Shown here: positions 254 through 52,417 of the stretch, piece by piece
Layout of the letters: each line of letters starts with the position of its first letter
Position numbering within the stretch: the first letter of the stretch is position 1
From: Escherichia coli
Lineage (GTDB): Bacteria; Pseudomonadota; Gammaproteobacteria; Enterobacterales; Enterobacteriaceae
Length of the DNA stretch: 64,000 nt
Direction: 5' to 3' (one strand)
Assembly (NCBI RefSeq): GCF_030013595.1
Contig: NZ_CP122768.1
Made by a program: the position numbers and the translations under genes
Notes under the pieces: generated by a model
What the model was told of the DNA's origin: nothing
Database searches by the model: none
The model's input: only the letters and a program-made list of their open reading frames with translations

Positions 254-332
254 CGATATGTTTCCGCTTTTCATATCCGACATTATTGATTGCCTGATAC
301 GACGCTAATGCGCCGCATCAGACTTACGTTCG

Positions 333-425
333 TTAACTTTTCAATCGCGGGTCCAGCCATACCAACACAAGGGTGGAGAGCGAACACATCAACAAAATGC
401 CGACGAACCAAAGTAAATACCACAT
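333..425 (-). CDS. appX: cytochrome bd-II accessory small membrane protein AppX (30 aa)
   Basis: 30-codon minus-strand ORF MWYLLWFVGILLMCSLSTLVLVWLDPRLKS, 12 bp downstream of appB stop; below the 60-aa cutoff of the ORF track. Confidence 0.75.
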   Translation of the reverse strand: MWYLLWFVGILLMCSLSTLVLVWLDPRLKS

Positions 426-437
426 TGTTCCCGCTCC

Positions 438-1574: not shown

Positions 1575-1585
1575 GATTTTCTCCT

Positions 1586-3130: not shown

Positions 3131-3263
3131 GCGCACTCCTGTAGGCGAAGAGAGAAAAATAACCCGTTAATGGTAGATCTCCCTCTTTATCCTGAAACTC
3201 TACGACCAGAGGTATTCGCCGATTGCGATATTCATAAGCCTGAAAGCGATACTTACCGTCTTT

Positions 3264-4121: not shown

Positions 4122-4516
4122 GAGGCACGCTCCTGTTGTGGTTCGACAAGCCCACGCATCAGGTTTATCAGTTCCGCCCACGGGTGAATACCATTCAGCA
4201 CGCCGCGATAGTTTCCGCCGGTAAACACTAATGTGGCGGGAAAGCGAAAGACGCCAAAGCGATCGCCGATGGCTTCGCTCTGCTCAAGGTCAGCAATCGC
4301 CACCTGCCATGTGTAGTCGGGAAACTCGCGCAGTAATTCGCCAATCATTACCGGATTATCGCTGACCTCTGGCGTGCGTTTCGGGTCACTGCTTAATAAC
4401 ACCACGCCGTCTGGCGCTTGCGTAAGCCAGTCGTCAAGACGGGATTCACTGACCGGCGTCCAGCCGCGCGCCAGCATTCGTTGCCACAACGCATCAAATG
4501 GCGTGTCGTTGCTCAT
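4118..4516 (-). CDS. hyaE: hydrogenase-1 operon protein HyaE
   Basis: 132-aa [22 protein letters not shown]..., operon position between hyaD and hyaF. Confidence 0.9.
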
Positions 4517-5100
4517 CCCTGCTCCTCCAGTGTCATCCGGTACTGGCGCAAGCGAACGCCTTCGTAATTTTCCATCGACAGACAGTCATAATTGAGACAG
4601 CGCGATTCATTAGCCGGTTGCGGCACAATTCCCCATGCAGCCAGCTGCGCCAGCGCCGCCTGTTCCGCTGCGGACAGTTGCTCCCGTGCCAGTTCGCTCA
4701 GGCTGCCGCCGTAGTCGTCGAGCATTGCGGGTTGCAGACCGACGAGGGCAATATGTGCTGGCAAATGACCACGTATATCCGCCAGCGCTAGCACTTCGGA
4801 GAAACTGTTCTGGTGCAGGCTCATTTTCTTCGCGCTGAGATAAGCCGGAATGCGTTCTCCGGCATACGTTCGTAGCGTTCCGGGTTCCAGCCCGTAATCA
4901 ATGGCATCGAGAATCAACAGATGACTGGCGCTTTCGACATACCCCAGCAAGTTCAGTCCTTGGGTGCCGCCATCGACAATCTCCACATACTCGGGCCAGT
5001 GGTAATGGGCATACAGCCGTTCCGCCACCCGCACGCCGAAGCCTTCATCGGCCCACAGCAGGTTACCCAGCCCCATTACCACCACGCGTTGCTCGCTCAT
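4513..5100 (-). CDS. hyaD: hydrogenase-1 maturation endopeptidase HyaD
   Basis: 195-aa [25 protein letters not shown]..., HybD/HyaD protease family; 4-bp overlaps with neighbours. Confidence 0.9.
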
Positions 5101-5804
5101 GAACGCTCCTTGTTACTTATTTTGCCAAATTTGTGGCTACGGTAGCCGTTGACCATAGTGGAGATCACCGTGTCGTCGGACATGATGTCTTCACGCAGCG
5201 CCATGTAGACATGACCGATCACAAACGCGCCAATCAGCCACATCCCCAGCCGATGCCAGCTGTGAATGTCCATTGAGTTGCCACCCGTCCAGTAGAAAAA
5301 TTCCACCACATAACGGAACGGCGCAAAAATAGCGTACTGGCTGTGTTCGCTGTACAGCGCAAAGCCGGTGATGATCATAAAAACTGACATCAGGAAATAG
5401 CCGAACATCGCCGCCTGGGCGATGGGGTTATGGCCTATATCGGCACTCGGACGTTTTGCCAGAAACAGATACCAGCGGATTTCATACCACACGCCCTGCC
5501 ACCAGCTTTTGCGCCATACTGGCACGATGAAAAGCTCGCGTGAGTAGCGATTGCCGACAAAAGCCCAGTAGATCCGCATCAGCAAGACCACGGTAAAAAC
5601 CATCCCGGCGCTGAAGTGAATCAACCTGATATAGCCCATGTAAAACAGATACGTCGCCTCACCGCTGACCGAAGGCAGCGGTTTGCCGATGAAGTAACCG
5701 GTGACCATCAACACCGCCATGCATAACACTGTCAGCCAGTGCCAGATACGGACCGGCGCTTCAAAGACATAATGGCTGACAACGTTGTCACTTTTCTGTT
5801 GCAT
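5097..5804 (-). CDS. hyaC: hydrogenase-1 b-type cytochrome subunit HyaC
   Basis: 235-aa membrane ORF with conserved His-containing helices; operon position. Confidence 0.92.
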
Positions 5805-5822
5805 GATGATTCTCCTTCGCTG

Positions 5823-7616
5823 TTAACGCACCTGCACGGAGATCAGCTCGCTACCGTCGTCGCCCAGCACGTGTGTTGAACAGGCGAGGCACGGGTCAAA
5901 GCTGTGCAGAGTACGCAGGATCTCCAGCGGTTGCTCGGGGATCGCCATTTTGGTGTTCATCAGCGCCGCTTCATAAGCGCCAATTTGCCCTTTAGGATCG
6001 CGCGGGCTGGCGTTCCAGGTGGTCGGCACCACGCACTGATAGAGATCAATCTTGCCATCGCGAATGGCAGCCCAGTGGCCTAACGCCCCGCGCGGCGCTT
6101 CGGTAAAGCCGACGCCACGGCACTCTGTCGGCCAGGTTGTAGGTTCCCATTTTTCAGTGGAAGCAGTGGCGAGATTGCCGTTTTTCAGATTGGTCATCAG
6201 CTTATCGAAGAAATACTGCAACTTACCTGCGGCCCACTGCGCTTCGTGCGCGCGACACAAAATGCGGCCCAACGTTGACTGGATGCCGGAAAGCGGCAGT
6301 TTCAACGCCGACATCATGCGATCGACCGACTCAACGGTCGCAGCATCGCCTTTGTGATAAGCGATTAACGTGCGTGCCAGCGGCCCCACTTCCATCGCGT
6401 TACCGCGCCAGCGTGGCGCTTTAATCCACGAGTAGCGTTCCTGTTCATTCAGCTGCTGAATGTTGGTATCGCTGCCTTTGACATCGCCGGGGTTGTACCA
6501 CGGGTCGGTGATGCCATCGAACGGATGACGCCCGACCTGATCGTTGGGATATCGATACCAGGCGTGGTCGACAAACTCCTGCACCTGCTGCGGATCAACC
6601 AAATCCACTGGCAGCACATTGTTGAAGTCGCCGTTAATCACCGCGCCGCCAGGCATCAGCAGACTTTTCTCGCCAAAGTCGTTGGCGATATCCGGGAACG
6701 CGCCGTAACTGAGAACGCATTTATCAGAAAGACCCGTGCCGATTTCGCTCCACGGTTTGTTGAACTGACCAATGGCTAAGGCGTCGGGGATCATCACGTT
6801 GTTAATGAAATCCGCCGTGCGGGTAATGATTGACTGCACCAGGTTCAGGCGTTCCATATTGACCGCCCCGACCGCGCCGCTTTCGTCAATGTTAATGGCG
6901 CAAGGCATCCCGCCGACAATCCAGTTTGGATGCGGGTTTTTACCGCCAAAGACCGCGTGGATTTTGACAATTTCACGCTGGAAATCGAGAGCTTCGAGAT
7001 AGTGGGCAAAGCCCATCAGGTTGGCTTCTGGCGGCAGTTTGTACTGCGGGTGCCCCCAGTAGCCATTGCGGAAGATCCCCAACTGCCCACCTTCAACGAA
7101 TTTCTTCAGGCGGTTTTGTACGTCGAAGAAATAGCCAGGGGATGATTTCGGCCAAGAGGAGAGACTTTGCGCCAGTTCGGAGGTTTTCCGCGGGTCGGCT
7201 TTCAGCGCATCTAACACATCGATCCAGTCCATCCCGGCAAGCTGATAGAAGTGCACCAGATGATCGTGGCACCAGAGCGTTGCCAGCATAATGTTGCGGA
7301 TGATATTAGCGTTGTCCGGCACTTTAATACCAATGGCATCTTCGATGGCGTAAACCGAAGCCAGAGCGTGTACGCCGGTACAGACGCCGCAGATACGTTC
7401 AACGAACGCCCACGCATCGCGCGGGTCTCGCCCTTGCAGAATGATCTCCAGCCCGCGAAACATGGTGCCGCAGGAGACGGCATTGGTGATCACATTCTGA
7501 TCGTTAATATTCACTTCGCAGCGCATGTGGCCTTCAATGCGCGTAATCGGGTCGACCACCAGGCGGCGTCCGGCATTATTGATGGTGTATCCCTGAGTTT
7601 CGTACTGAGTGCTCAT
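5823..7616 (-). CDS. hyaB: [NiFe] hydrogenase-1 large subunit HyaB
   Basis: 597-aa ORF with N-terminal RxCGxC and C-terminal DPCxxCxxH Ni-binding motifs (...[13 protein letters not shown]...). Confidence 0.95.
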
Positions 7617-8731
7617 GCCTGTTTATCCTCATTGCCTGGCTGATGTTCGGTTTCTGTAGGTTGCTGGTTATGACGTCTGCGCTGGTCAACGGCGCTGGCG
7701 ACTGCGTGCACACCAACAGCCGCTGCCACCACGCCAAGTGCGGTTAAACCGACGGTATCGGCGGTGGAATGAGTACCCATTTGCGGAATATCGACCACGC
7801 GGCTGTAGAACGAACCGCGATCCCAGAAACCATTTTCCGCACAGCCCAGGCAGCCGTGACCAGACTGGATTGGGAAAGAAACGCCATCATTCCAGCGTGT
7901 GGAGGAACAGGCGTTATAGGTGGTAGGTCCTTTGCAACCCATTTTGTACAGGCAGTAACCTTTGCGGGCAGCGTCATCATCCCAACTCTGGACGAACTCT
8001 CCGGCGTCGAAGTGAGCGCGGCGATAACATTTATCGTGGATACGCTGACCATAAAACATCAGTGGACGGCCCATTCTGTCGACATCTGGCAAGCGATCAA
8101 AGGTCACCATGTAAGTAATGATGGCGCTCATCACATCCGGGATCGGCGGGCAGCCAGGTACTTTGATAATAGGTTTGTCGGTGATGACTTTGTCGATAGG
8201 CGTTGCCTGCGTCGGATTGGGTCGCGCGGCCTGCACGCAGCCCCAGGACGCGCAGGTTCCCCAGGCGATAATCGCACTGGCTCCGGCAGCGGCACGTTTG
8301 AGTTTCTCAATAAACGGTCGTCCGCTGCTGATACAGAACATCCCCTGCTCGCCCAGCGGCGGATTACCTTCTACTGCGAGGATATATTTGCCATTGTATT
8401 GCGTGATGATGTCTTCAAAGACTTCTTCCGCCTGGGTTCCGGCGGCAGCCATCAAAGTATCGTCATAATCGAGGGAAATCAGGGAAAGGATGACGTCCTT
8501 CGCCAGCGGGTGAGCGGAGCGGATAAAAGATTCGGTACAGCAGGTGCATTCCAGACCGTGGATCCATACCACCGGAATGCGCGGTTTGTTCTCCAGCGCC
8601 CAGGCAATCTTTGGTGCCATTCCCGCGCCTAAGCCCAGCGACGTGGCAGCCAGACTACAATATTTGAGAAAGCTGCGCCGGGTAACGCCCTGACGCCGCA
8701 TGGCCTGGTAAAATGTTTCCTCGTTATTCAT
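7613..8731 (-). CDS. hyaA: [NiFe] hydrogenase-1 small subunit HyaA (Tat signal peptide)
   Basis: 372-aa ORF from [25 protein letters not shown] (twin-arginine motif); ATG at 8731..8729 inside the longer track ORF. Confidence 0.93.
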
Positions 8732-9116
8732 ATCGCACGTCTCTTCTCCTTGCGACACCGGCAGGACACCGGGCGCTTATGGTCGGCAAGCGACGTCCCT
8801 GTAGCAAGGCAAACCATCGCTTCACGTGAGATGCTGAAAACGAAAGCTCATCCTTCTGCACTGGCGCACGTCGCCAGAAAGTATTGTTAATAAAGCGTAG
8901 TGAAACTTTTGCACAAAACAATACAAACTGTATGGATTTATCTTTTAGCGATAAAAATGGACCTATTTTTCTTTTTGCCGGGCAGTGGGGATGTTTAGCC
9001 GGTTGCTAAACGAGTAAAAGAGAAGGAATTCATGGTGATGAAATGATCAATCTGCTGTTATTTCACGCTATCAATGCACTTTTGTCTGTTTTTCAGGCAA
9101 ACAAACAAATTAGGGG
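8732..9116. promoter_or_regulatory. hyaA upstream control region, divergent from serT
   Basis: 385-bp AT-rich non-coding interval upstream of hyaA start; exact promoter and operator sites not resolved by eye. Confidence 0.4.
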
Positions 9117-9145
9117 TTTACACGCCGCATCGGGATGTTTATAGT
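9117..9145 (+). promoter_or_regulatory. sigma-70 promoter of serT
   Basis: TTTACA (9117..9122), 17-bp spacer, TATAGT (9140..9145), GC-rich discriminator, about 12 bp before the mature tRNA 5' end. Confidence 0.6.
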
Positions 9146-9157
9146 GCGCGTCATTCC

Positions 9158-9245
9158 GGAAGTGTGGCCGAGCGGTTGAAGGCACCGGTCTTGAAAACCG
9201 GCGACCCGAAAGGGTTCCAGAGTTCGAATCTCTGCGCTTCCGCCA
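9158..9245 (+). tRNA. serT: tRNA-Ser (anticodon UGA)
   Basis: 88-nt sequence GGAAGTGTGGCCGAGCGGTTGAAGGCACCGGTCTTGAAAACCGG...GAATCTCTGCGCTTCCGCCA with long variable arm and anticodon loop CTTGAAA; encoded CCA end. Confidence 0.92.
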
Positions 9246-9252
9246 AATAATC

Positions 9253-9286
9253 AAGGGGTTACCAAATGGTAACCCCTTTGCTTTTT
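9253..9286 (+). terminator. rho-independent terminator after serT
   Basis: Perfect hairpin AAGGGGTTACC-AAAT-GGTAACCCCTT followed by TGCTTTTT. Confidence 0.75.
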
Positions 9287-9292
9287 GGGCTC

Positions 9293-9323
9293 TTGGTATA
9301 AACTTGGTATACCAATTGGTATA
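9293..9323. repeat. three phased TTGGTATA repeats including a perfect 16-bp palindrome TATACCAATTGGTATA
   Basis: TTGGTATA at 9293, 9304 and 9316 (11-12 bp phasing); 9308..9323 is its own reverse complement. Confidence 0.7.
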
Positions 9324-9508
9324 TTTTCTGCCAAAAAATTCCTAAAATCCCCTCCAGCACAAACAATCACTTGCTCATTCATACTTTATCAAGAAAATAT
9401 CCTTGCAAGTTATGTTGTTTCTTTCTGCGTCCCGACAGGGTGTCATGGTTCCCCACTTCTCTCGGGATGGACACTTAACGGACGAGAAATTTTCAGGTGT
9501 CATTCAGA

Positions 9509-9547
9509 CGCGCTTCGGCCCCGGATTGGCGAAGCGCGCTTTTTTTC
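9509..9547 (+). terminator. orphan rho-independent terminator between serT and tfa
   Basis: Stem CGCGCTTCG (9509..9517) / CGAAGCGCG (9530..9538) followed by CTTTTTTTCTC. Confidence 0.5.
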
Positions 9548-9693
9548 TCAGATTATTTCGTTTTGCCTGAGTGTTGAATAACGCCACTACAGTTATATAA
9601 GCTGGAAATCATTCAATACTCGCACTATCGAAAGTTCACCAGCCAACCGCAGCACGTACTGCATACGTCGTGTCTGCGGTTTTTCTTTTTCAC

Positions 9694-10278
9694 TTACATT
9701 GTGTCTGGTTCTTCCGGCCACACAATATCCGGTGCTACTGATGTATCAACACGGTTCAGCAACACCCGATACTTTTTCCAGGCTTCCAGCAACGAGTTTT
9801 CTTCCTCCGTTGCGATCTCCAGATCTACAGCATCCTGAAGTGGCGCAATATGCTCACTGGCTACCTGCATCAGGCTGTTTTTTGTTTCTTCCGCCTCCCG
9901 GATCCGGAACAGTTTTTCTGCTTCTGCATCTTTCACCCAGGCTGTGCCGTTCCACTTCTGAAACTCCCCTTCCGGCGATAACCAGGTAACATTTTCCGGT
10001 AACGGACCGAGTTCAGAAATAAATAACGCGTCCCCTGACGCTACGTCATAAACCGTTTTACCCCGATGGTCTTCAACGAGATGCCACGATGTCTCATCAC
10101 TGTTGAAAACAGCCACGAAGCCTGCCGGAATATCTGGCGTTGCAATATCGGTACTGTTTGCTGGCAGACCTGTATGAGGTGGAATGTATGCATCACCTTC
10201 ACCAATAAATTCATTAGTTCCGGCCAGCAGATTATAAATTTTTATGGTCCGTGCTTGTTCACTCATTCTGAATGCCAT
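9694..10278 (-). CDS. tfa: tail fibre assembly protein Tfa
   Basis: 194-aa ORF, same length as lambda Tfa; overlaps stf stop. Confidence 0.9.
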
Positions 10279-12758
10279 TATGCAAGCCTCACAATATAGT
10301 TAAATGCGATGTTTTTGACGGTGTTTTCCGCGTTACCAGCAGCGTTAACGGTGATGGTGTGTCCATGTGAGCCAATCGCAACAGAGTGCGTATGAGCACC
10401 AATACCGACAGTATGTGCGTGAGCACCTGCAGATGCAGCTGTGCCGCTGACACTATGAGTGTGCGCTCCTGCAGCACTTGTATTCACACTGGCCGCAGAC
10501 ACTACCTTATGTACTGACCCATTTTGTGACCACTGGCTGACTGCTGATGCGCCTGTGACACTATGAGTATGGTTTCCGGCACTTGCGGCTGTACCGCTCA
10601 CACTGTGCGTATGCGCCCCGGTGTTATTCGTGGATTTAGTGCCGTAATCAAACGACGATGTGGTTTTCGTCCCCAAATCCGTACTGGATGCGCTGGCGCT
10701 GTGGGTGTGCGATTTAATGCCGTCCTGTTCCTGAGACAATACGGCCCGACCACTGGCAGGTTTGCCCTTAATCGTCCAGCCACGCATATCAGGGATCACG
10801 CCTGACGGATAAGCGGCTGCAAGTTTCGGGTATGCAGATTTGTCAAAAGTCTGCCCCTGCATCAGGGCATAACCAGACGGAACGGTATCTGATGGCCACG
10901 GGATTGGTGCACCGACTGGGTAGCTTTCTGGTGGAAGATTTTTCGAGGTATAAACTTCTGCCCAGTCTTCCTCAAAACCATAACCGTCTCTTGAAGAACG
11001 GTAGAACAGACCACCATTTCTGTAATGCGCCTTCATCTGCAGGGTCCGGCAACTTCCGACTCCGGTATAGAAGTTAACCAGAATATAGCTGTTGCCTGTC
11101 CGGGTGACATTGTATGCACCAGATTTAGCATTCCACGGAACGCCTCCCTCTGACTCTGCGTGCACACCAGACGATCCAAGAGCAAAAGCAGAGACATCTG
11201 CAGCGGACAGCCTGATGTCTGATTTCAATGCCTTACCATTCACCTTACGACCAGATGGAACCCGGTCATTTGCATTATCATTCACCGCTTTCACCGCCAT
11301 TGGTGTTGCCGCCAGCGATTCACTGTCACTGTCCGTGGCACTGCTGAGCTGTACCACCCCCTTTCTCGTCGTGCTCGCATCCTCTAGCGCCACGGCAGAT
11401 GCAATATCCTCTGCCCGTTTTGCTGCTGTCTCGGCACGCGTTGCTGCAGATTCCGACGTACTTTTGCTCTGAGCTGCCGCTGTCGCACTACCAGCTGCCT
11501 CTGTCGCCTTCGTGGATGCCGTCGTGGCACTGACCTTCGCCTCTGACGCCTGTCTTACCGCCTCATCTTTTGAAGCAGACGCCGATGATGCTGATGACGC
11601 CGCCGAACTGGCGGACGATGCGGCTGCCGTTTCTGAGGCTCCTGCGCGGGTTTCCGACGCTTTCGCATTCGTCTCAGATGTCTTCGCTGCGGAAGCAGAA
11701 CTCGCAGCTGCAGTGGCCTGTTCAGTGGCTTCGCCAGCCTTCGTTGTGGCTGTTGAAGCGGACGATGCAGCGCTTTCTGCCGATTTTCCGGCGGCAGCGG
11801 CACTGGCTACAGCCTCCCCTGCCTTCACTGATGCCTCACGGGCCGATGATGCAGCCGCGGTTTCTGAGCCTGCCGCAGCTGAGGCACTCTGTCCCGCTGC
11901 CGTTTCAGAAGACTTAGCGTTTGTCTCAGACGTCTTTGCCGCCTTCGCGGAATTTCCTGCCGCCGTTGCCGAGGAGGCTGCACTACTGGCACTCGAGGCT
12001 GCGCTCGTTTCTGATGATTTTGCCGCCTCTTTTGAAGCCGACGCATCCCTGGCTGAGGAGGCAGCTTCTGACGCTTTCGTGGTCGCGGTGGATGCAGAGG
12101 TGGCTGCTGATTGTTGTGACGCTGCAGCATTCGTTTCAGACGTTTTCGCGGCACCGGCACTGGTGGCCGCCGCGCTTTTTGAGGACTCTGCAGCGGCAGC
12201 ACTTTTTGAGGCTTCAGTGGCCTTTGTTGATGCCGTTCCTGCGCTGGAAGACGCTGACTGAGCCGACGAAGCGGCCTGTCCGGCTGACGTGCTGGCTGCA
12301 CGTGCTGAATCTGCAGCATCAGTCGCATGGGTTGCCGCCTCACGGGCAGATGTGCTGGCATCACTGGCTGACTTCTTCGCGGCTGCCGTGTTCTGTGCCA
12401 CCACGGACGCGTTACGCGCCACCTCTTCCACCATCAGTTCAAAACGGCGCAGTGCCTCCGGACGGGCATCATCCTCCGTCATGGCACCGAGAAAATCATT
12501 CAGCGTACCGGGTTGAGAATCTTCATACACGGTGATGGTCCCGGCATGCGAAGGCGGAAAACCTTCAACCAGCAGGGTGACACTGTACTGACCGTACTCA
12601 ACGTCCATGCTGTAACGCCCGGCTTCATCCGGATTTTCTGAGGCCAGCGTGTTCACCACCACCGTGGTACTGTTACGTTTTGCTTTCAGCTGGATTGTGC
12701 AGTTCTGTACCGGTTTTCCTGTGCCGTCTTTCAGTACACCTGAAATCTTTACTGCCAT
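10278..12758 (-). CDS. stf: side tail fibre protein Stf
   Basis: Starts [26 protein letters not shown] as lambda Stf; long Ala/Ser-rich shaft; C-terminal ...[31 protein letters not shown]. Confidence 0.88.
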
Positions 12759-37583: not shown

Positions 37584-40406
37584 ATGACGGCAAAGTACAT
37601 CAGGGACTGGCAACAACCGCGCCACGCAGTGGGGCGTGAAGGAACGGGGATCCCCGCTCCTGAATCCGCGCTTTCCTCCTGGCTGGATGCCTACCGGGCA
37701 GAGAACGAGCGCCGCCAGGAAATGGCTGATGCGGCGTTCTCCGCCACGCCGCTGGGCAACCTGATTAATAAAAGCCTGGACGCACAGGAAAAACAGGACA
37801 AAACCATCACACTGGCAGGAGACGCCAGAAAACAGGCACGCGGCGCGGTGGATGAAGCCATGGCCTCGCTGCGCCTGCTGCCGTCCTATCTGCGCGATCC
37901 GCTTATTCGCCACCTCTCCTTCCTGCGCAAAAAACAGGAAGCCGATCGTCAGAAAGGAAAAAACGCCAGGCAGGCAGAACGCTATGCGCGTGGGACCCTG
38001 CGCAAAATATTCGAACGTCTGGAGCGCACCGATCACCGCTGGCTGACACCGGGTTATCGCTCCCTTGCCGGACGCGAACGCCTGGACGATTTGCTTTACC
38101 TGCCGCAGCTCAACAAACACCAGATACAGACGCTGGCCACCATGACGGCGGCGATGTTCAGCAGCACCTTCGAAAAACTCTGCGATGGCTTTGGCGCGAC
38201 CGATGGCGAACTGACCATGGATGTAACGCTGAAGGCGTATCAGATGCTGGCCCGCATGGCGTTACACCTGCACATCATGCCTCCACATTATGACGCACTG
38301 ACAACAGACAAAGACCGGAGGAACGAACCGGACACGGAGCTGCTGCCGGGCGCAATCCTTCGCCTGACCTGTGCGGAATGGTGGAAACGCAAACTGTGGC
38401 TGTTACGTTGCGAGTGGCGGGAAGAACAACTCCGCGCCGCCTGTCTGGTTTCCAGAAAAACATCACCCTATCTGAGCCAGGACGCGTTAAGCGAGTTTCG
38501 CGCACACCGCGAGAAAACACGCGATTTCCTGAAAAGTTTCATGCTGGAAAATGAAGACGGGTTCACGATTGATCTCGAGACGGTGTATTACGCGGGAGTA
38601 AGTAACCCGGTTCACCGTAAGGCAGAAATGATGGCCACCATGAAGGGGCTGGAACTTCTGGCCGAAGCCCGTGGCGACAGAGCGGTGTTTCTGACTGTCA
38701 CCTGCCCGTCAAAATACCACGCAACAACGGAGAACGGTCATCCGAATCCCAAATGGAACGGGGCCACCATGCGCGACTCCAGCGATTACCTGGTTAACAC
38801 GTTTTTTGCGACGGTCCGCAAAAAACTGAACCGCGACGGTCTTCGCTGGTATGGCATCCGCACGGTGGAGCCTCACCATGACGGCACTGTGCACTGGCAT
38901 ATGATGGTCTTTGCACATCCGGACGAGATTGAAACCATCGTGTCCCACGTCTGCGATATTGCCATTCAGGAAGACCGCCACGAGCTGGGCGATGATATTA
39001 CTCCGCGTTTTAAAGCGGAGTACGTCGACGGCTCAAAAGGCACGCCAACCAGCTACATCGCCACCTACATCGGAAAGAACCTGGACAGCCGCGCCGTGGA
39101 TGGCATCGCCCCGAAAACGGGCAAGCCACGCGTTGACCACGAAACCGGAAAATCAATGGCCGAGAGCGTGGAGCGCGCCATCGGCTGGGCGCGCCTTCAC
39201 CGGGTCCGCCAGTTCCAGTTCTTTGGCATCCCCTCCCGTCAGGTGTGGCGTGAACTGCGCCGCCTTGCCAGCCAGATGGCACGCAACCCGGAAGGCCCGC
39301 AACGGCTGAAGGATGACGCAATGGATGCAGTGCTCGCTGCCGCTGATGCCGGGTGTTTTGCCTCCTACATTGAAAAACAGGGCGGCGTACTTGTTCCACG
39401 CCAGGACTACCTGATTCGCACCGCCTACGACCTCGCAGATGAGCTGAACGATTACGGCGAACAGAGCGTACAGATTTACGGGATCTGGTCACCACTCATC
39501 GGGGAGTCTTCCCGTGTGTGCACACATCCGGATAACTGGAAGCTGGTAAGACGTAAACCGGAAGCGGAAGACAGCGCCCGCGAAAATGGTTTTGACCTTC
39601 AGGGCGGCCCTGCCGCCCCTTGGACTCGTGGCAATAACTGTCCCCGTGTACAGGAAACGGACAACAACGGGACAGAACAGCCGGAAGAACGGCCAGCACC
39701 GTGGCCGCAGCTCCCTGACGGCGTTGAAGTGAACGAATGGATGCGCTCACTGAAACGGCACGAACGCCGGGCGCTGATGCGTTCGCTTCGTGACAAACAG
39801 GCAAAAAACAGCAGTGATGAAATGCAGAGCTGGACACAGAGCCGCAAACAGCAGCGGCCTTTGCCTGATAACCACGAATTACTCGCTAAAGAATGGCGGG
39901 AGTCTGCTGAATCTCTCGGCCTGCATATCGGTGAACAACAGATGCAGCACCTGTTACGGGGCGGCAGTCTGTACGTTGACGGCAGCATCATTGCACCGCA
40001 GGGATTTGAAATTGTACGCAAACCGGATACCCGCCCGGACAGCCGAATCACGCAGCTCTGGCAGCGCCTGAGCCGTAATCATGGCGTAAGCAGCACGGAG
40101 ATCCGCCATAACCCGGTCGCCAGCTATCTGGCACAGCTGGGGGCATCAGACCCTGAAGCCGCCGCACGCCTGGCATCCACACTTCAGCAGGACCAGAACA
40201 CCATGAAAACACCCGTTACCGTGCTTTCTGACATGCTGCGCGCCATCCGCGACGCAGAGCACGCACAGAGAATCAGTGAAACCACTGAACGCGCCAGCCG
40301 CAAAGCAGACCTGCTGCGGGGTGGCCTGACCAGTGGAAACAAAAAACAGACAGAAACGGGACTCACGAATCCCGCAAATGAGCAAAAAACGCGCAGCGAT
40401 ATATGA
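37584..40406 (+). CDS. A: replication initiation endonuclease, P2 gpA family (rolling-circle, HUH motif)
   Basis: 940-aa ORF with ...WYGIRTVEPHHDGTVHWHMMVF... HxH motif and ...YIATYIGKN... active-site Tyr region typical of P2/186 A proteins. Confidence 0.9.
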   Translation: MTAKYIRDWQQPRHAVGREGTGIPAPESALSSWLDAYRAENERRQEMADAAFSATPLGNLINKSLDAQEKQDKTITLAGDARKQARGAVDEAMASLRLLPSYLRDPLIRHLSFLRKKQEADRQKGKNARQAERYARGTLRKIFERLERTDHRWLTPGYRSLAGRERLDDLLYLPQLNKHQIQTLATMTAAMFSSTFEKLCDGFGATDGELTMDVTLKAYQMLARMALHLHIMPPHYDALTTDKDRRNEPDTELLPGAILRLTCAEWWKRKLWLLRCEWREEQLRAACLVSRKTSPYLSQDALSEFRAHREKTRDFLKSFMLENEDGFTIDLETVYYAGVSNPVHRKAEMMATMKGLELLAEARGDRAVFLTVTCPSKYHATTENGHPNPKWNGATMRDSSDYLVNTFFATVRKKLNRDGLRWYGIRTVEPHHDGTVHWHMMVFAHPDEIETIVSHVCDIAIQEDRHELGDDITPRFKAEYVDGSKGTPTSYIATYIGKNLDSRAVDGIAPKTGKPRVDHETGKSMAESVERAIGWARLHRVRQFQFFGIPSRQVWRELRRLASQMARNPEGPQRLKDDAMDAVLAAADAGCFASYIEKQGGVLVPRQDYLIRTAYDLADELNDYGEQSVQIYGIWSPLIGESSRVCTHPDNWKLVRRKPEAEDSARENGFDLQGGPAAPWTRGNNCPRVQETDNNGTEQPEERPAPWPQLPDGVEVNEWMRSLKRHERRALMRSLRDKQAKNSSDEMQSWTQSRKQQRPLPDNHELLAKEWRESAESLGLHIGEQQMQHLLRGGSLYVDGSIIAPQGFEIVRKPDTRPDSRITQLWQRLSRNHGVSSTEIRHNPVASYLAQLGASDPEAAARLASTLQQDQNTMKTPVTVLSDMLRAIRDAEHAQRISETTERASRKADLLRGGLTSGNKKQTETGLTNPANEQKTRSDI

Positions 40407-40451
40407 AGCGCGCACAAAACAGGCAAAAACGGGATTTCAGAATCCCGTAAA
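40354..40451. repeat. two 25-bp dyad-containing direct repeats straddling the A stop codon, upstream of the parM-like gene
   Basis: AAACGGGACTCACGAATCCCGCAAA (40354..40378) and AAACGGGATTTCAGAATCCCGTAAA (40427..40451); each contains CGGGA-N8-TCCCG; 73-bp centre-to-centre. Confidence 0.6.
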
Positions 40452-40482
40452 CGATTAATTAATCAACATAAGGAAAAGCGAC

Positions 40483-41442
40483 ATGAAAATTTGTATCGAC
40501 GACGGCTCCACCAACATCAAGCTGGCATGGACTGAGAACGGCGAACGCCGCAACGCCATCAGCCCGAACAGCTTCAAGTCGGAATGGTCTGCGCCGTTCG
40601 GCGGCACGCAGCCCGCGAACTACATGCTTGATGGCGTGCGCTATGGTTTTGATCCGGTCAGCGATCGCTTTGTCCAGACGACCGACACGCAATACCAGTA
40701 CAGCGATGTAAATGTCATTGCCATTCATCACGCGCTGGTCAAATCAGGCATCACGCCACAGGAGGTGGATGTGGTTGTCACCCTGCCACTGAGCGAGTAT
40801 TTCGACACAAACGCACAGCCGGACATGGCCAACATCAACCGCAAAAAAGCGAACGTTATGCGCCCGGTGGAGTACCAGAACGGCGAAGCATTCACTATCC
40901 GTAACGTGCGGGTTATGCCTGAATCCATTCCGGCTGGCTTTAAAGCACTGGCTGACATGAGTCCGTTTGAATCCCTGCTGATTGTGGATTTAGGTGGAAC
41001 CACGCTGGATGTGGCAAAGGTTCAGGGACAACTGGCAGGTATCAGCCAGGTGTTTTGCGATCCACACGTAGGCGTTTCCCTGATGGCCGATGCAGTACTG
41101 TCGGTGATGGCCACTAACGGTATGCGTACCAGTCACCACATCGCCAATACCATTATCGAACATCGCCATGATGAAGCCTGGCTGCGCCAGCACATCCACA
41201 ATGACGCGCATTACGCCAGCCTGATGGCGGTTATTCGTGAAAAGGAAGAAACACTGAAACAACGCGTGATCCGCGCGCTGGCGGGTTTTTCGGGTTACGG
41301 GCGGGTGATGGTTGTCGGTGGCGGGGCGGAGATTGTGGCACCCGCTATCCGCGAAGCCTGCGGAGTTAATGCGACTTTCATCGCGGACGGGGTGCCACAG
41401 TTTGCTCTGGTTAATGGGCTGTACGCAATGGACAAGGAGTAA
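40483..41442 (+). CDS. parM: ParM/StbA-family actin-like ATPase
   Basis: 319-aa ORF MKICIDDGSTNIKLAW...NSFKSEW...YSDVNVIAIHHAL...VMPESIPAG...IVDLGGTTLD...VVGGGAE...LVNG, alignable throughout with R1/R100 ParM/StbA. Confidence 0.85.
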   Translation: MKICIDDGSTNIKLAWTENGERRNAISPNSFKSEWSAPFGGTQPANYMLDGVRYGFDPVSDRFVQTTDTQYQYSDVNVIAIHHALVKSGITPQEVDVVVTLPLSEYFDTNAQPDMANINRKKANVMRPVEYQNGEAFTIRNVRVMPESIPAGFKALADMSPFESLLIVDLGGTTLDVAKVQGQLAGISQVFCDPHVGVSLMADAVLSVMATNGMRTSHHIANTIIEHRHDEAWLRQHIHNDAHYASLMAVIREKEETLKQRVIRALAGFSGYGRVMVVGGGAEIVAPAIREACGVNATFIADGVPQFALVNGLYAMDKE

Positions 41443-41446
41443 ACCA

Positions 41447-41758
41447 ATGACGACACCAACCAGACGGATAAGTTTCTATCTGAAGCCCGCCGCCGTCAAG
41501 AACGAAGGCGAAGCATGCGCCTGGCTGGACAGCCTTACACCAGAAGCCCGCAAAAGCGGCCAACGTGTGGCTTTTCTGGCCGGGCTGGCACTTCTGAAAA
41601 TGAATCCGGCAGAGGCTTACCGACTGGCTGCATGGGCTGACGATGAGGCGTTATCAGTGACACAAACCAGGACAGAACGCCCCGCGTCACAGCCAGTACC
41701 AACCACACAGATAACCAGTCGGATGGCCGGAAATATCAGGGCGTTATTTCCCGAATAA
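41447..41758 (+). CDS. parR: ParR/StbB-like adaptor protein (putative ribbon-helix-helix)
   Basis: 103-aa ORF MTTPTRRISFYLKPAAVKNEGEACAWLDSLTPEARKSGQRVAFLAGLALL...; AAGGAG 7 nt upstream, 4 bp after parM stop; N-terminal pattern resembles R1 ParR. Confidence 0.65.
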   Translation: MTTPTRRISFYLKPAAVKNEGEACAWLDSLTPEARKSGQRVAFLAGLALLKMNPAEAYRLAAWADDEALSVTQTRTERPASQPVPTTQITSRMAGNIRALFPE

Positions 41759-41786
41759 CACAACATCAGGGCGCATCCGCCCTGAT
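41735..41786. repeat. ATCAGGGCG direct repeat plus a 9-bp-stem hairpin at the parR 3' end
   Basis: ATCAGGGCG at 41735..41743 and 41765..41773; inverted copy CGCCCTGAT at 41778..41786 forms a hairpin with a CATC loop. Confidence 0.55.
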
Positions 41787-41821
41787 GACTTTAATCCGGG
41801 AACATAAACAAGGGGGACACA

Positions 41822-42154
41822 ATGCAACACATTGACAGAGAAAAAGCGCAGCGACTGATTGAGCGGATGGAAGCGCTGGCGAAAGAAGAAAATGTCAACA
41901 TCCAAAAAATAGCTGAATGTGGCCAGATAGTTCTTCGTCGTGAAAAAGACCTCAAACAACTGATGTCTGGCGAAACCAGCAAAACATGGACTTCAGGCGA
42001 GGAGACGATTTATTGCAGCTTCTGCAATAAATCTCAGTACGAAGTCACAAAGGTGATTGCCGGACCGTCTGTTTACATCTGCAATGAGTGCGTGGATTTG
42101 TGCAATGAAATTATCAGGAGAGAAGTGACAGACAAAAAGGGAAAAAACGCATGA
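41822..42154 (+). CDS. ClpX N-terminal zinc-binding-domain homolog with N-terminal coiled-coil extension
   Basis: 110-aa ORF; C-terminal ...[40 protein letters not shown] is near-identical in pattern to the E. coli ClpX Cys4 zinc-binding domain ([40 protein letters not shown]); AGGGGG RBS. Confidence 0.8.
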
Positions 42155-42489
42155 ACAGAAAACAAAAACAAGAGTTGAAATACTTTTTACGTAAAGAAAT
42201 TGCCAGGCTTGAAGATGCAGAATCACAATCATCAGAAATTCCGTTCGGAATGGATATCAACGACGCCCGTATGCTCCAGGCATACCGCATAGCTCAGGCT
42301 GCACTACAGGCAAAACCGTCAGATGGACTGGTTAGAGCAGTACGATTCTATGAACTGGTAAAGCGTGAGAATCCGCCAGCCGAAACCGGAGCATGGAAAG
42401 ACGCTGTTGACTGGGTACTCAAAGAGGCTTGTCAGGTTGTAAACACTGGCATCAAAGGAGACCTAGCCCAGCCTGCATCAAAGCTATAG
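42151..42489 (+). CDS. hypothetical protein translationally coupled to the ClpX-domain gene
   Basis: 112-aa [29 protein letters not shown]...; ATG overlaps the upstream stop (ATGA); followed by a strong terminator. Confidence 0.55.
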
Positions 42490-42498
42490 AAATGAGCC

Positions 42499-42526
42499 AA
42501 AACGCCCTCTTCCAGGGCGTTTATTT
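42499..42526 (+). terminator. rho-independent terminator closing the accessory island
   Basis: AAAACGCCCT-CTTCC-AGGGCGTTT followed by ATTTC. Confidence 0.75.
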
Positions 42527-42529
42527 CAA

Positions 42530-42669
42530 TGCACAATAGTGCACAAATTTGCACAATTTTTTTGAACGAATTTTTGCCCTTCCGGCCCGCGTGACAGTTG
42601 GATCCGTCAAGGATCCGTGCGTGCACAAAAAAACGCGCTTTTTCTGCGCGCAGGTGACGGGGGAACAGC
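42530..42669. other. candidate cos/packaging region of the P2-like phage
   Basis: Non-coding interval before portal Q where P2 has cos; three TGCACAA repeats at exact 10-bp phasing (42530, 42540, 42550) plus a fourth at 42622; GGATCCGT at 42600 and 42611; palindrome CTGCGCGCAG 42644..42653; GGTGACGGGGGAACAGC (42653..42669) loosely resembles the P2 cohesive end. Confidence 0.4.
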
Positions 42670-42980
42670 CCGCGTTTCAGGGGGTAAATAGCATTCCCTG
42701 AACGATGTCGCAGAGATACAACAGAATGGCTGTATTTCTCACGCTGAGCGTGAAAAAGATGTGAGGGCTTTTGATTTGATGGGGTGAAAGGTAAGGCCGT
42801 CAAAATCGCACTGAGGCGGCGAGAACATACAGTCAACGCGGTAGGATTGCGTAAGAGTCTGACCGTCGATGGTGGCGATAAACTGGAAGGCGTCGTGAAA
42901 TTATCTGATTGATACAGGAGCTGGAGAGTCGGGGCATAAATTTTTTATGCCCCGGCGAAGCAGCAGACAAGCGAAGCGCG

Positions 42981-44027
42981 TCAGGATGTGGGCTGGGTAT
43001 CTAACAGTGCGTAAGGGTTAAAGCGGATCACCTCTTCGCCAAGCCAGTCATTGATGTGCTTCATGGCCTCCATGACGGGCATCAGCTCGTTAATTGCGTA
43101 AACCCGCGCGGCCTTCTCCACATCACCAAACGCACTTTTTTCACCCGGCATCGCTCCCATCAGTTGCGGCGGAACGCGGTGCGCAGCCAGCACATCATCA
43201 CGGGATGCCGCCTTAACATTCATGAACTCATCCTTTGCGGTGATCTGCTGGAACGGCAAAATTTGCACACCTTCTTTGCCCCCGTTGGGCGCATGAATGA
43301 GCACGTTTTTAAATGCACCACCACCACGCGCACCCTGTAACGTTTCTTTCAGGGAGTCCATGCTTTCGCGGTTTACCTGCGCTGCACCGATGTAGATGAT
43401 GCACCCGGCGTGGGATCCGTTGTCGTAATACAGTTTTCTGAACATGTCCGCCGAATGAGACAGGCTGGCCGAGAGTAATGCGCCAAGATATTCCGGCATG
43501 CCGTAAATTTCCTGGTTAATGTCAGGATTCATCAGGTGACACACTTTGCCTGGGCGAAACTGAAACGCATCCTTGCCATCCTGCACATACCACCATGATT
43601 CAAGATCGCTTCCGCGTCGCATGTATTTCGCCAGGGCGTGCCGTAATTTAAGCGGTTCGCCGAGCATATTGCTTCGAAGCTCAAGGAATGCGTTACCGAA
43701 CACAAACCAGTCCAGCGCCAGCGCCGAGAAATCCTGCCGGGAAAGCAGCGGGTGCGGAATATAGCAGCCGAGCAATACATTGCGCTTAAAGTAAAGCGCA
43801 GACTGATGCCAGGACGTTTGCCGGGCAGCTCTTGCCAGACCGTACCAGTCTACCGGGGTTTCATACCACCGCCCGTTATCAGCACAGTACATATTGTCCA
43901 GCAGGTCATGCCCGGTCAGGCGATAAGGACCATCAAATGTGAATGCACTGAGCGATGATTCTTTCCTGAGCGCATCAGCGAGATCAATGCGTGAACTCAT
44001 GCGCACTTTTTTATTTTTTCTGCTCAT
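42981..44027 (-). CDS. Q: portal protein, P2 gpQ family
   Basis: 348-aa ORF, size and sequence pattern of P2 Q; leftward, upstream of terminase P. Confidence 0.9.
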   Translation of the reverse strand: MSRKNKKVRMSSRIDLADALRKESSLSAFTFDGPYRLTGHDLLDNMYCADNGRWYETPVDWYGLARAARQTSWHQSALYFKRNVLLGCYIPHPLLSRQDFSALALDWFVFGNAFLELRSNMLGEPLKLRHALAKYMRRGSDLESWWYVQDGKDAFQFRPGKVCHLMNPDINQEIYGMPEYLGALLSASLSHSADMFRKLYYDNGSHAGCIIYIGAAQVNRESMDSLKETLQGARGGGAFKNVLIHAPNGGKEGVQILPFQQITAKDEFMNVKAASRDDVLAAHRVPPQLMGAMPGEKSAFGDVEKAARVYAINELMPVMEAMKHINDWLGEEVIRFNPYALLDTQPTS

Positions 44028-45778
44028 CAGAACTCCATAACCGTGAAACGCTCGTTTTCTCCTTCGCCGCCAATTGGTTCGTTAATGACAGCAAGCATGG
44101 TTGCCCACGCAAGGTCGCCGTGGCTGATCCCCCTCGCGCGGTCCGTTTCGTAAGTGATAAAGCCGCCCGGTGTTTTCACCTTACGCACGGCGTTAAAGGC
44201 CGCGACCAGCTCGCGTTCGGCGCGATCGTATTCCCACCGTCCGGCACGCATTATTTGCAGCATTTTCAGTACCAGCGACCGTTTGGATGACAGCGTGAAG
44301 GTGTACGGAATAGCAGCAGGGAAAAACCGCTTCACTATCTGATAAACAGCCTCCCCGTTCCCGCCCGTCACATCAATGCCGATGTGTTCCACGTTGTAGC
44401 GACACGTGAACTCTTCAATGACTCTGGCCTGTTCTTCAAACTCCAGCCCCTGAACGCGTCGCGTCTCCACCGTTCGAAAACGGCCACCAGGAACAGCCGG
44501 AGGAACCACCACGGACACAGCGCCGCTGTCGCCGTTGCCACTGCTGCCGTTTGCGTCATACCCAATCCATACCGGACGATTCCCCATCGGGCGGGGAGCA
44601 AAAGGTTTCCAGTCTTTCCAGTCGTCGTATCCGTCAACACCGCAGCCAATCAGGATATTCAGGTTAAATGCCGATTCCCCTTCGCGAACAAACTCACACA
44701 TATAGAGATTGAGGAACTCGTCTTCGGTGTTTTCATCACGGATTTCGTCAATATCGGTGTGTTTCCAGCCGTGATTAACCACATCTTCCAGCGTGACAAT
44801 TTGCCGCCACGTCCGGTCAGGGCAGATAAGCCCGTTATGCAGCGTTTTCCAGTCCACAGAAAAACGCTGGCGTTTATGCGCGGCCTTTTTCTCGTTCCAG
44901 CGGTCGCCGTTCCAGTAGACGTATGCCTCGTGCGTTTCGGTTGATGGCGTGGAGAAGTAGGTGCGCCGCAGTCCGCTGAGGGTTGCCATAGCGCCAGCCA
45001 CCTTGCGCAGTTCAGCAAAGCGACTGACCCAGAAAAATTCATCAAAATAAAAATTGCCTGTGTAGGACTGTGCCGTCGCAGCAGAAGTACCGAGAAAATG
45101 CAGTTCTGCGCCGTTGGAGAGGATGATTTTATCGCCCCCTTTCAGCTCCACATCAACTTCAGCCGCGGCCTTCTGAATAATGCTTTTAAACTGGAACGCC
45201 TGACGACGCGACGCAGACAAAAAAATCTGGTTACGCTGGTAAGGTTGTGCCACATCGTCACGCAGCGCCATCAGCAGTGCTTCCTGTGCAAAATACCAGG
45301 TCGCCCCAATCTGTCGGGATTTCAGGATCATCCTGTTACGTATCCCGGCTTCACTGCAAAGGGTCAGGGAGTCAAACCAGCCCCGCTGATGCCACTCCAG
45401 CCTGCTGATGATTTTTTCCCGCAGTGCGGCAATCTGCTCCGGCGTGAAATGATTTTTAAGTTTTTTCGCCCGGCCTTTCTTTCCTGTGGCCGTCGCATCC
45501 GGCTGGCCATCATGCAGTTTTTTAAGCTGCCGGGTCAGCAGGTCTATTTCCTTAAAGTCACCACCTGTTTTATTCTGTTTTTCAGTAAGCTGGATGAGGC
45601 GCGCATCGATGGACTGCGTGACACGCTGCACGGGTGGCGTTTCATCCCACTGGTCGCGTTTTTTCCACGCATAAATCGTGTTCGGGTTTATTCCCATCAG
45701 ACGTGATATTTCTGCGGGCGGATAACCCTGCCAGTAAAGTTGCCGCGCACGCTGGCGCACAAAAGCGTCCTGAATCAT
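44027..45778 (-). CDS. P: terminase large (ATPase) subunit, P2 gpP family
   Basis: 583-aa ORF with ...LKSRQIGATWYFAQEAL... Walker A-like and nuclease-domain acidic residues. Confidence 0.92.
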   Translation of the reverse strand: MIQDAFVRQRARQLYWQGYPPAEISRLMGINPNTIYAWKKRDQWDETPPVQRVTQSIDARLIQLTEKQNKTGGDFKEIDLLTRQLKKLHDGQPDATATGKKGRAKKLKNHFTPEQIAALREKIISRLEWHQRGWFDSLTLCSEAGIRNRMILKSRQIGATWYFAQEALLMALRDDVAQPYQRNQIFLSASRRQAFQFKSIIQKAAAEVDVELKGGDKIILSNGAELHFLGTSAATAQSYTGNFYFDEFFWVSRFAELRKVAGAMATLSGLRRTYFSTPSTETHEAYVYWNGDRWNEKKAAHKRQRFSVDWKTLHNGLICPDRTWRQIVTLEDVVNHGWKHTDIDEIRDENTEDEFLNLYMCEFVREGESAFNLNILIGCGVDGYDDWKDWKPFAPRPMGNRPVWIGYDANGSSGNGDSGAVSVVVPPAVPGGRFRTVETRRVQGLEFEEQARVIEEFTCRYNVEHIGIDVTGGNGEAVYQIVKRFFPAAIPYTFTLSSKRSLVLKMLQIMRAGRWEYDRAERELVAAFNAVRKVKTPGGFITYETDRARGISHGDLAWATMLAVINEPIGGEGENERFTVMEF

Positions 45779-47889: not shown

Positions 47890-48690
47890 ATGATTACTCC
47901 TGCACAGCAACACTGGCAGAACGTGATGGCACAGCGCGCAGGCCGGGCGAATGAAGGCGTGGACCACGCCGCGCGTACCGCGCATGAAGAGGTGCTGTAT
48001 CGTCTGCGTCTGGCACAGGCCCGGCTTAAGGGCGTACAGGCCAGAAGCGCGAAAGCCGCCATCAAAAAAGAGTTATTGCCGGACTTTTCCGGCTGGATTG
48101 AGGGAACGCTGGAGGCTGACGGCGGGCAGCAGGATGAAGTGATTGCCACGCTGATGGTCTGGGCGATTGACTGCGGCGATCTTCCGCTGGCGCTGCGTAT
48201 TGGTGCATATGTGGTCCGTCACAACCTCATCATGCCGGATAACTTTGGACGTACTGCTGCCACGGTACTGACCGAAGAAATCTGTAATCCGGTACTGACG
48301 CAGGCCGGGACGGATGCCGACGCGGATTTGTCCGCCTTTATCGAACCACTGGACACCCTCCGGGAGATTGTCACCGACCAGGACATGCCGGACGAAGTGC
48401 GCGCCAAATTATGCAAAGCGTGCGCCTTTGCCCGCCGTGGCCTGAGTGATACGGACAGCATGGCCCTGTCACTGAAGCTGCTGCGCGAAGCAATGCACCT
48501 GAACCCGAACGCAGGTGTGAAACGCGAGATTGCAACCCTTTCCCGCGCCCTGAAAAAAGCCGATTCCGCAGCCGCACCAGAAGACGCCAGCGCACAGCAG
48601 ACGCAGGACGAAAGCAGCAAAAGTAAAAAGACAACGCGGAAGCCTGCAACACGAAAAACCACCGCGACGCAGAAGGCGAAGCGCGGTTAA
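47890..48690 (+). CDS. M: terminase small (endonuclease) subunit, P2 gpM family
   Basis: 266-aa ORF MITPAQQHWQNVMAQRAGRANEG... with basic C-terminal tail; position after N. Confidence 0.88.
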   Translation: MITPAQQHWQNVMAQRAGRANEGVDHAARTAHEEVLYRLRLAQARLKGVQARSAKAAIKKELLPDFSGWIEGTLEADGGQQDEVIATLMVWAIDCGDLPLALRIGAYVVRHNLIMPDNFGRTAATVLTEEICNPVLTQAGTDADADLSAFIEPLDTLREIVTDQDMPDEVRAKLCKACAFARRGLSDTDSMALSLKLLREAMHLNPNAGVKREIATLSRALKKADSAAAPEDASAQQTQDESSKSKKTTRKPATRKTTATQKAKRG

Positions 48691-51839: not shown

Positions 51840-52417
51840 GCGCAGAACTCATGCGACTGCTGAGCAATATCATCCGCACCGGGATCATCTCTGAAGTTGA
51901 TGAGAAGTCCTGGCGCGTGCGCGTTCGCAGCGGCGAACTGGAAACAGGCTGGTTGCGCTGGAACACCACGCGCGCGGGAGCCTTCAATGTATGGCTGCCG
52001 CCATCACCAGGCGAACAGGTGGTAATTGCCTGCATTGGCGGCAACCCGGAAACCGCCATGATAATTGGCAGCCTGTGGAGTGATGCCAGTCCGGCCCCCG
52101 GCAAAAGCCTGAAAGAAATCGTGGTCAGCGCGCCGGATGGCGCGGCGTTCCGCTACGACGCAGACGCTGGCGCACTGAGCGCCAGCGGCATGAAAACAGC
52201 CACCCTGCAGGCATCCGTCAGCGTGACACTGGATACGCCCGTCGTGGAATGCACAAACCTTCTGAGAACAGCGACGCTTGACGTCACAAAAGGGGGAAAG
52301 ATGAGCGGCAATATCACGCACAGCGGCGGCGATTTCACCTCAAACGGCATCACAGTGCATACGCATAAGCACGGTGGCGTTAAAGGTGGCAGCGATTCGA
52401 CAGGAGGCCCGCAGTGA
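51836..52417 (+). CDS. V: baseplate spike protein, P2 gpV family
   Basis: 193-aa ORF with OB-fold-like N-terminus and Gly-rich C-terminal tip region. Confidence 0.88.
   Translation: MSAELMRLLSNIIRTGIISEVDEKSWRVRVRSGELETGWLRWNTTRAGAFNVWLPPSPGEQVVIACIGGNPETAMIIGSLWSDASPAPGKSLKEIVVSAPDGAAFRYDADAGALSASGMKTATLQASVSVTLDTPVVECTNLLRTATLDVTKGGKMSGNITHSGGDFTSNGITVHTHKHGGVKGGSDSTGGPQ

Follow-up and report, generated by a model that had tools for sequence, protein, structure and literature searches.

Phased TGCAC repeats in the probable cos site of a P88-like Escherichia coli prophage and their counterparts in P2, 186 and P4

P2-like prophages and their satellites rank among the most frequent mobile elements in Escherichia coli. 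Their cohesive end site, cos, is the sole sequence common to helpers and satellites, and it forms the boundary of anti-phage defence hotspots (PMC9122126). For P2 and P4, cos has been delimited as a "55-bp core" (Ziermann & Calendar 1990, as cited in PMC9594776, PMC5694545, PMC3931495 and PMC2231350), and the packaging substrate of P4 is a monomeric circle (PMC2231350). We connected the annotated right end of each genome (P2, P4 and 186) to its left end and counted positions relative to the base at which the 19-nt cohesive end starts. In all three genomes, TGCAT was found at -124/-123, -111, -101 and -29, and P2 and P4 had almost nothing else in common upstream of -29. The copy at -29 lies in TGCATTAAAA in P2, 186 and P4. 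The 55-bp core as cited corresponds to -29 to +26 and thus starts exactly at this fourth repeat. For the three upstream copies we found no description in the accessible literature, which cites only the 55-bp core. The cohesive ends of P2, 186 and P4 are G-rich 5' extensions of 19 nt with the pattern GGCG(A/T)GGCGGGGAAAGCA(C/T).

In a 64,000-nucleotide stretch of E. coli DNA (the window), the original prediction placed a P2-like cos region with phased repeats at 42530-42669. Its start is correct, while its end falls 2 bases short of the full 19-mer, which ends at 42671. Our analysis of the sequence indicates that the block at 42530-42678 is very probably the cos site of a P88-like prophage and a diverged homologue of the cos sites of P2, 186 and P4. 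The block sits in a 490-bp intergenic region. On its upstream side, a gpA-type replication gene (37584-40406) is followed by a plus-strand cargo operon (40483-42489) encoding ParM, a StbB/ParR-like protein, a ClpX-zinc-finger protein and a 112-aa ORF. The cargo operon ends in a plus-strand terminator hairpin (42500..42523), in which the perfect 9-bp inverted repeat AAACGCCCT / AGGGCGTTT precedes a T-run, and this terminator is the left limit of the conserved cos block. On the other side, the portal gene, a homologue of P2 gpQ (42981..44027, minus strand), was identified by the Pfam family Phage_portal, by the P88 annotation and by 45% identity to P2 gpQ. It is followed by the large terminase gene, a homologue of P2 gpP (44027..45778, minus strand; Terminase_5, Terminase_6N and Terminase_6C). 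Past the large terminase gene, a scaffold gene, a P2-family capsid gene and gpM are encoded on the plus strand, the last being the small terminase gene (47890..48690; Phage_term_smal, PF05944, 5.6e-37; 36% identity to P2 gpM). The order gpA, cargo, cos and portal matches that of P2 and 186.

The region is 97.8% identical over 1 kb to Escherichia phage P88 (Xuanwuvirus, Peduoviridae), and positions 42530-42693 are 100% identical to it. P88 can be induced and lyses indicator strains (PMC5285337). Of 5426 complete E. coli genomes, 1173 contain the module. When phages with different cargo are aligned to it, the match in most cases begins precisely at 42530, the first base of the first repeat, in keeping with the published view that a cargo hotspot adjoins cos here (PMC9122126). 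A PADLOC search with the four cargo proteins (40483-42489) returned no defence match, although the locus is a known defence hotspot.

Several further elements were observed in the vicinity. Between cos and the portal gene lies a 42-aa ORF (42784-42912, plus strand) that gave no Pfam match. The P88 and P88_4B11 records list it as hypothetical, and P88-like phages conserve the stretch that contains it. A hairpin with the perfect 8-bp stem CGGGGCAT/ATGCCCCG is located just beyond the portal stop codon (42930-42954). A small ORF annotated across cos in P88 had no clean translation at the mapped coordinates of the window. In the late region of the prophage, ARAGORN called a tRNA-Leu(CAG) gene (52123-52212, minus strand), which scored below threshold with the Rfam tRNA model and may be a false positive.

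Three plus-strand copies of TGCACAA, R1, R2 and R3, start at 42530, 42540 and 42550 (span 42530..42556) in an exact 10-bp phase. A fourth copy with an A-run, R4 (42622..42632, plus strand), lies 72 bp past R3 and 31 bp ahead of the predicted nick. A sequence check and a repeat finder, which returned spacings of 10, 10 and 72 bp, located every TGCACAA, every GGATCCGT and the palindrome CTGCGCGCAG where the original prediction had put them. Counting both strands, the 64-kb window has nine copies of TGCACAA, fewer than the 15.3 expected from shuffles, and four of the nine are packed on the same strand inside 99 bp. In the whole window, no other 7-mer forms a triplet at any fixed spacing of 8-13 bp. 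The analytic expectation for such a phased triplet is 3e-4 per window, and none appeared in 300 shuffles; a chance origin is excluded. Relative to the predicted nick, R1 to R4 start at -123, -113, -103 and -31. The window thus has TGCAC at these positions, where P2, 186 and P4 have TGCAT at nearly the same ones. Alignment with the P2 and 186 cos regions, which the original prediction had proposed as a check, gave the four-repeat layout at matching distances from the mapped ends. Given the matching offsets in P2, 186 and P4, the four copies in the window represent the P88-lineage version of the layout of the classical phages.

By homology to the mapped ends of P2 and 186, the cohesive end of the prophage is predicted to be the 19-nt sequence GGTGACGGGGGAACAGCCC (42653-42671, plus strand), with the predicted nicks placed 5' of 42653 on the top strand and after 42671 on the bottom strand. 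The original prediction described the sequence as diverged from P2 cos. This description is borne out. In GGTGACGGGGGAACAGCCC, 13 of the 19 bases agree with the P2 cohesive end GGCGAGGCGGGGAAAGCAC, and in the segment corresponding to the 55-bp core (-29 to +26) 38 of 61 aligned columns are identical to P2. The core of the window is far more diverged from P2 than P4 is; R4, the A-run, the GC dyad and the 19-mer are all recognisable. Intermediate sequences were found in a locus designated L008, whose 19-mer matches the window at 17/19 and P2 at 15/19 positions, and in a group of loci (group C) with 16/19 and 14/19, respectively. The left flank GCGCGCA is common to the 19-mer of the window and to these linking intermediates.

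No virion end of a P88-type phage was found among the public records. No record or contig ended at the 19-mer, and the IMG/VR contig ends near the module were scattered (+77, +99, +153, +175 and beyond). The linear record of P88_4B11 (NC_049391.1; our loci L002 and L003) is opened at 42575|42576, inside cos and 77 bp upstream of the predicted nick. The end and start of this record join with no gap, duplication, terminal repeat or missing bases. Most simply, it is a circular assembly that was opened at an arbitrary point, and it is uninformative on the termini.

The sequence between R3 and the predicted nick was compared with that of other lineages. Directly 3' of R3 lies a T-rich tract (42557..42575, plus strand) composed of T7, GAACGAA and T5. 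According to the consensus sequences of the groups, CAATTTTTTTGA in this tract is kept in all TGCAC-type groups, and the tract may form an intrinsic bend. It is followed by a variable central spacer (42576..42621, plus strand), which contains GCCCGCGTGACAGTT and the two plus-strand copies of GGATCCGT (42600-42607 and 42611-42618). The central spacer tolerates change in a working phage, since the window and P88 have GTGACAGTTGG where 46 relatives have GTGGCGGCTGG. The pair of GGATCCGT copies, counted as a cos element in the original prediction, turned out to be confined to the P88 lineage. Its place is taken by a CGCCAG-NN-CTGGCG dyad in P2/186 and group B, and by GGCGCGGTCTGAG in P4 and Novemvirus-type phages. 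The comparison suggests that the pair is lineage-specific spacer sequence and no general recognition element. Beyond R4, a GC dyad of the form ACGCGC-N7-GCGCGC (42633..42652) ends in GCGCGCA next to the predicted nick. The palindrome CTGCGCGCAG (42644-42653), which the original prediction had listed as a feature, overlaps this dyad and runs into GGTGACGGGGGAACAGCCC. On the sequence comparison it is incidental: what stays conserved across the groups is GCGCGCA directly 5' of the 19-mer.

The GC dyad has the appearance of a terminator when read on the minus strand, and the elements could be viewed as transcription terminators that insulate cos, their repeat-like look being a by-product. A consensus scan called two terminator-like structures, R2-R3 with T7 on the plus strand and the hairpin 42651-42633 with T7 on the minus strand. 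In P2 and P4 too, the stretch from R4 to the nick holds a GC dyad, of the CCGCCCC...GGGGCGG type and at the position of that in the window, and a T-run on the minus strand comes after it. However, two calls are within the expectation from shuffles (mean 1.0, sd 1.0), a hairpin needs neither R1 nor the exact phasing, group B keeps R4 and its spacing without a GC hairpin, and the true cargo terminator lies upstream at 42500-42523. An explanation by terminators only is thus very unlikely, and a terminator role could coexist with packaging recognition. A search of Rfam across the region returned no RNA family.

To avoid circularity, relatives were gathered independently of the repeats. With a profile of the portal protein, 80 IMG/VR loci were collected whose portal identity ranged over 55-100%. 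They were anchored by the beginning of the 19-mer and by nothing else, and 47 representatives that differ by more than 10% were kept. Of these 47, 46 had a YGCAC or TGCAT word at -29/-31, 40 had one at -101/-103, 35 at -111/-113 and 21 at -121/-123; the background in this set is 0.012 per position. Two larger sets were defined by the type of 19-mer. Among 100 representatives with a P2/186 19-mer, TGCAT occurred at -29 in all 100, at -101 in 78, at -111 in 66 and at -124 in 42. In the 71 representatives with the 19-mer GGCGAGGCGGGGGAGCAAG (group B), TGCAC occurred at -29 in all 71, at -101 in 65 and at -111 in 64, and the position -124 was not counted. R1 is often degenerate (P2/186, 42/100; group B, 18/71), and five P2/186-type loci had no R1-R3 at the exact offsets. 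The distance between R3 and R4 is 72 bp in every group, and only the spacer between R4 and the nick varies, being 29 or 31 bp. An Enterobacter phage with 73% identity keeps only 42523-42674 of the query. The architecture of R1-R3, 72 bp, R4, GCGCGCA and a G-rich 19-mer is common to the whole P2 family. TGCAT is used by P2, 186 and P4, and TGCAC by the P88-type phages and a second large clade. Together, the gene context, the offsets from mapped ends and these unbiased sets of relatives support the proposal of a P2-like cos region that includes the repeats. As a side observation, an extra TGCAY peak was seen 3' of the 19-mer in the portal-selected loci L169-L211, at +79 (18/47) and +92 (16/47), and one group B locus has TGCAT in the same region.

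The layout is also found in satellites. P4-like elements, whose Psu proteins are 50-99% identical, keep TGCAT at -124, -111, -101 and -29, and their intervening sequence differs. In three other loci (L064, L120 and L027), which represent an unrelated satellite-like element, the TGCAC-type module is complete, GGTGACGGGGGAACAGC(A/C)C included, and its surroundings contain no portal or terminase gene. Among the comparative arguments for a packaging signal, the retention of precisely this pattern in helper-dependent satellites is the strongest.

The element in L064 is about 12 kb long (1-12006), with its cos module at 8614-8760. It encodes an integrase, a Toprim primase (phrog_1139), a second tyrosine recombinase, a P2-family major capsid protein, a MazF toxin and a 236-aa ORF belonging to no family, and no portal, terminase or psu gene was found in it. 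It looks like a satellite of P88-type helpers with its own capsid gene.

The distribution of the layout also bears on the possibility that the phased repeats are a parC-type centromere of the ParM/StbB cassette upstream (40483-41758). Sites of the parC type are generally phased short iterons, and the prophage does encode ParM (PF06406 and PF21523) and a StbB/ParR-like protein (PF10784). However, this layout of repeats is also found in P2, 186, P4, phiT5282H and many more, all of which have no parMR. Moreover, 770 bp, with two other genes and a terminator, separate the cassette from the repeats downstream of it, and a 42-nt direct repeat with internal dyads immediately upstream of parM makes a better candidate. 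The centromere reading, which is extremely improbable, was rejected on the conservation of the layout in phages and satellites that have no parMR cassette. The two copies of the 42-nt repeat (40340-40381 and 40413-40454) are 79% identical, and each has the dyad ACGGGAYT..GAATCCCG. They are directly upstream of the genes for ParM (40483-41442) and the StbB/ParR-like protein (41447-41758), and the repeat is a candidate centromere or operator of a partition cassette in the P2 cargo hotspot.

If the repeats are part of a packaging signal, they have to be recognised by a protein of the phage or of its host. Both motif types occur in phages of E. coli, and the last letter of the motif (T or C) tracks the terminase lineage. 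Since the letter follows the terminase lineage within one host species, the repeats are probably read by a phage-encoded protein rather than by a host protein. The alternative would be that no phage protein reads the repeats and the T/A tracts, and that they serve as binding sites of a host architectural protein such as IHF, HU or Fis or are simply intrinsic bends that shape cos. Lambda cosB uses IHF, and the fixed 72-bp spacing between R3 and R4, together with the conserved T7, suggests bending or looping. However, a host protein would show one specificity only, and P2, 186, P4 and P88 all grow in E. coli, yet differ in the letter according to their terminases. In addition, the best match to the IHF consensus WATCAANNNNTTR in 42557-42622 had 3 mismatches. 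We therefore consider a reading by host proteins or bends very improbable.

As for a phage-encoded reader, Pfam finds a helix-turn-helix in only one of the two terminase proteins, the large subunit. The domain covers aa 6-63 (nt 45590-45763; Terminase_5, 1.8e-26; HTH_23, 4e-7), and the record of 186 also notes an N-terminal helix-turn-helix for Orf12. The putative recognition helix is NPNTIYAWKKRD in TGCAC-type phages and KRPTVQSWKQRD in TGCAT-type phages, and it is nearly invariant within each class. An AlphaFold2 model of the N-terminus shows three short helices (aa 2-41). All matches of a fold search with this model were non-significant, though they were mostly helix-turn-helix proteins. 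For the small subunit gpM, a Pfam search gave Phage_term_smal only. In the AlphaFold2 model of gpM (pLDDT 82), a TPR-like solenoid built entirely of alpha helices is followed by a basic C-terminal tail that is disordered. The model contains no winged-helix, helix-turn-helix or other DNA-binding fold, and it resembles no solved small terminase. No relative with a solved structure was found by sequence for either terminase subunit.

In most cos and pac phages that have been studied, recognition of the packaging signal falls to the small subunit. By this precedent, the TGCACAA repeats would be recognition sites of gpM, as the R sites of lambda cosB are for gpNu1. The type of gpM follows the type of the motif as well as the helix-turn-helix of the large terminase does, and the long basic C-terminal tail of gpM could touch DNA. 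On the other hand, Pfam gives no helix-turn-helix in gpM, its model is a TPR-like solenoid, and the dedicated N-terminal domain sits on the large subunit. Recognition by the small subunit, as the original prediction had it, is unproven and, judged from the models, not the most probable arrangement, with the only recognisable helix-turn-helix being on the other subunit. The type of helix-turn-helix, the type of gpM and the type of motif are perfectly concordant in 90 loci, and there are no recombinants. This concordance amounts to a single evolutionary change, and therefore the covariation cannot separate gpM from the helix-turn-helix of the large terminase, nor can it exclude shared ancestry. 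On the predicted structures, the N-terminal helix-turn-helix of the large terminase is our favoured candidate for the repeat reader, ahead of gpM, and its chance of being correct is slightly short of even. A helix-turn-helix on the large subunit combined with a gpM that, by its model, has none would be an unusual distribution of domains for a terminase.

A broader proposal, more tentative than the choice of the large-subunit domain, is that the TGCAY repeats are the determinant of packaging specificity in the P2 family, that they are read by the helix-turn-helix of the large terminase and not by the small subunit, and that they fall into at least two classes which decide the mobilisation of satellites by helpers. 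The classes we propose, with equal reserve, are TGCAT for P2, 186 and P4-like satellites, and TGCAC for P88-type phages, group B and a distinct satellite family, the last being characterised by an integrase, a primase and its own P2-family capsid gene.

Packaging at this site might proceed as follows. Protomers of the phage terminase would occupy R1-R3, one helical turn apart, and R4, and the 72-bp spacer would be bent or looped with the aid of the conserved T7 tract. The nuclease would then make staggered nicks, one 5' of 42653 in the top strand and the other 19 nt further along in the bottom strand, with GGTGACGGGGGAACAGCCC as the 5' overhangs. By these cuts a monomeric circle would be linearised and then packaged, as in P2 and P4. 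Within cos, the repeats are located distal to the head genes, on the side that corresponds to the right end of the mature genome. The repeat-bearing side is presumably the end that is packaged last, and this would differ from lambda cosB.

The site is largely what is expected for the cos of a P2 relative, with modest new detail and nothing surprising in kind. The sub-structure of R1-R3, 72-bp spacer, R4 and 19-mer provides a simple sequence rule for locating cos in prophages. The two motif classes may give a rule for predicting which helpers and satellites are compatible in packaging, which is relevant to cosmid delivery based on P2 and P4. The analysis also suggests that the two terminase subunits may share their work in an unusual way, with the DNA-reading domain residing on the large one.

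Among the systems outside the P2 family, the cos of lambda (cosQ-cosN-cosB, with R sites for gpNu1 and an IHF site) resembles the site in having short repeats beside a staggered nick and a spacer of a length suited to bending. The resemblance is a functional analogy only, as there is no sequence relationship. Unlike lambda cosB, the window has no IHF consensus site between the repeats, and the small subunit has no predicted N-terminal winged helix-turn-helix in its model. The predicted overhang is 19 nt here, whereas that of lambda is 12 nt. Furthermore, the repeats here are on the side of the nick opposite to the head genes, and the substrate would be a monomeric circle, as in P4 (PMC2231350). 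The pac site of SPP1 provides another likeness in phased short boxes at two places near the cut. In SPP1, pacL and pacR boxes flank pacC and are probably joined by an oligomeric terminase. SPP1 differs in its headful packaging, and its proteins and sequences are unrelated to those of the window.

The closest systems are the cos sites of P2, 186 and P4. They differ from the window in the core of the repeat, which is TGCAT instead of TGCAC(AA), and in the R1-R2 spacing, which is 12-13 bp compared with 10 bp in the window. The spacer of the window has two copies of GGATCCGT instead of the inverted repeat or GGCGCGGTCTGAG found elsewhere in the family, and its terminase proteins are 36-47% identical to those of P2. 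Nevertheless, the sites have in common the position between the cargo hotspot and the portal gene, the orientation, a homologous G-rich 19-mer, the four-repeat layout at equal distances apart from a 2-bp offset, and cognate terminase genes of the gpP and gpM types.
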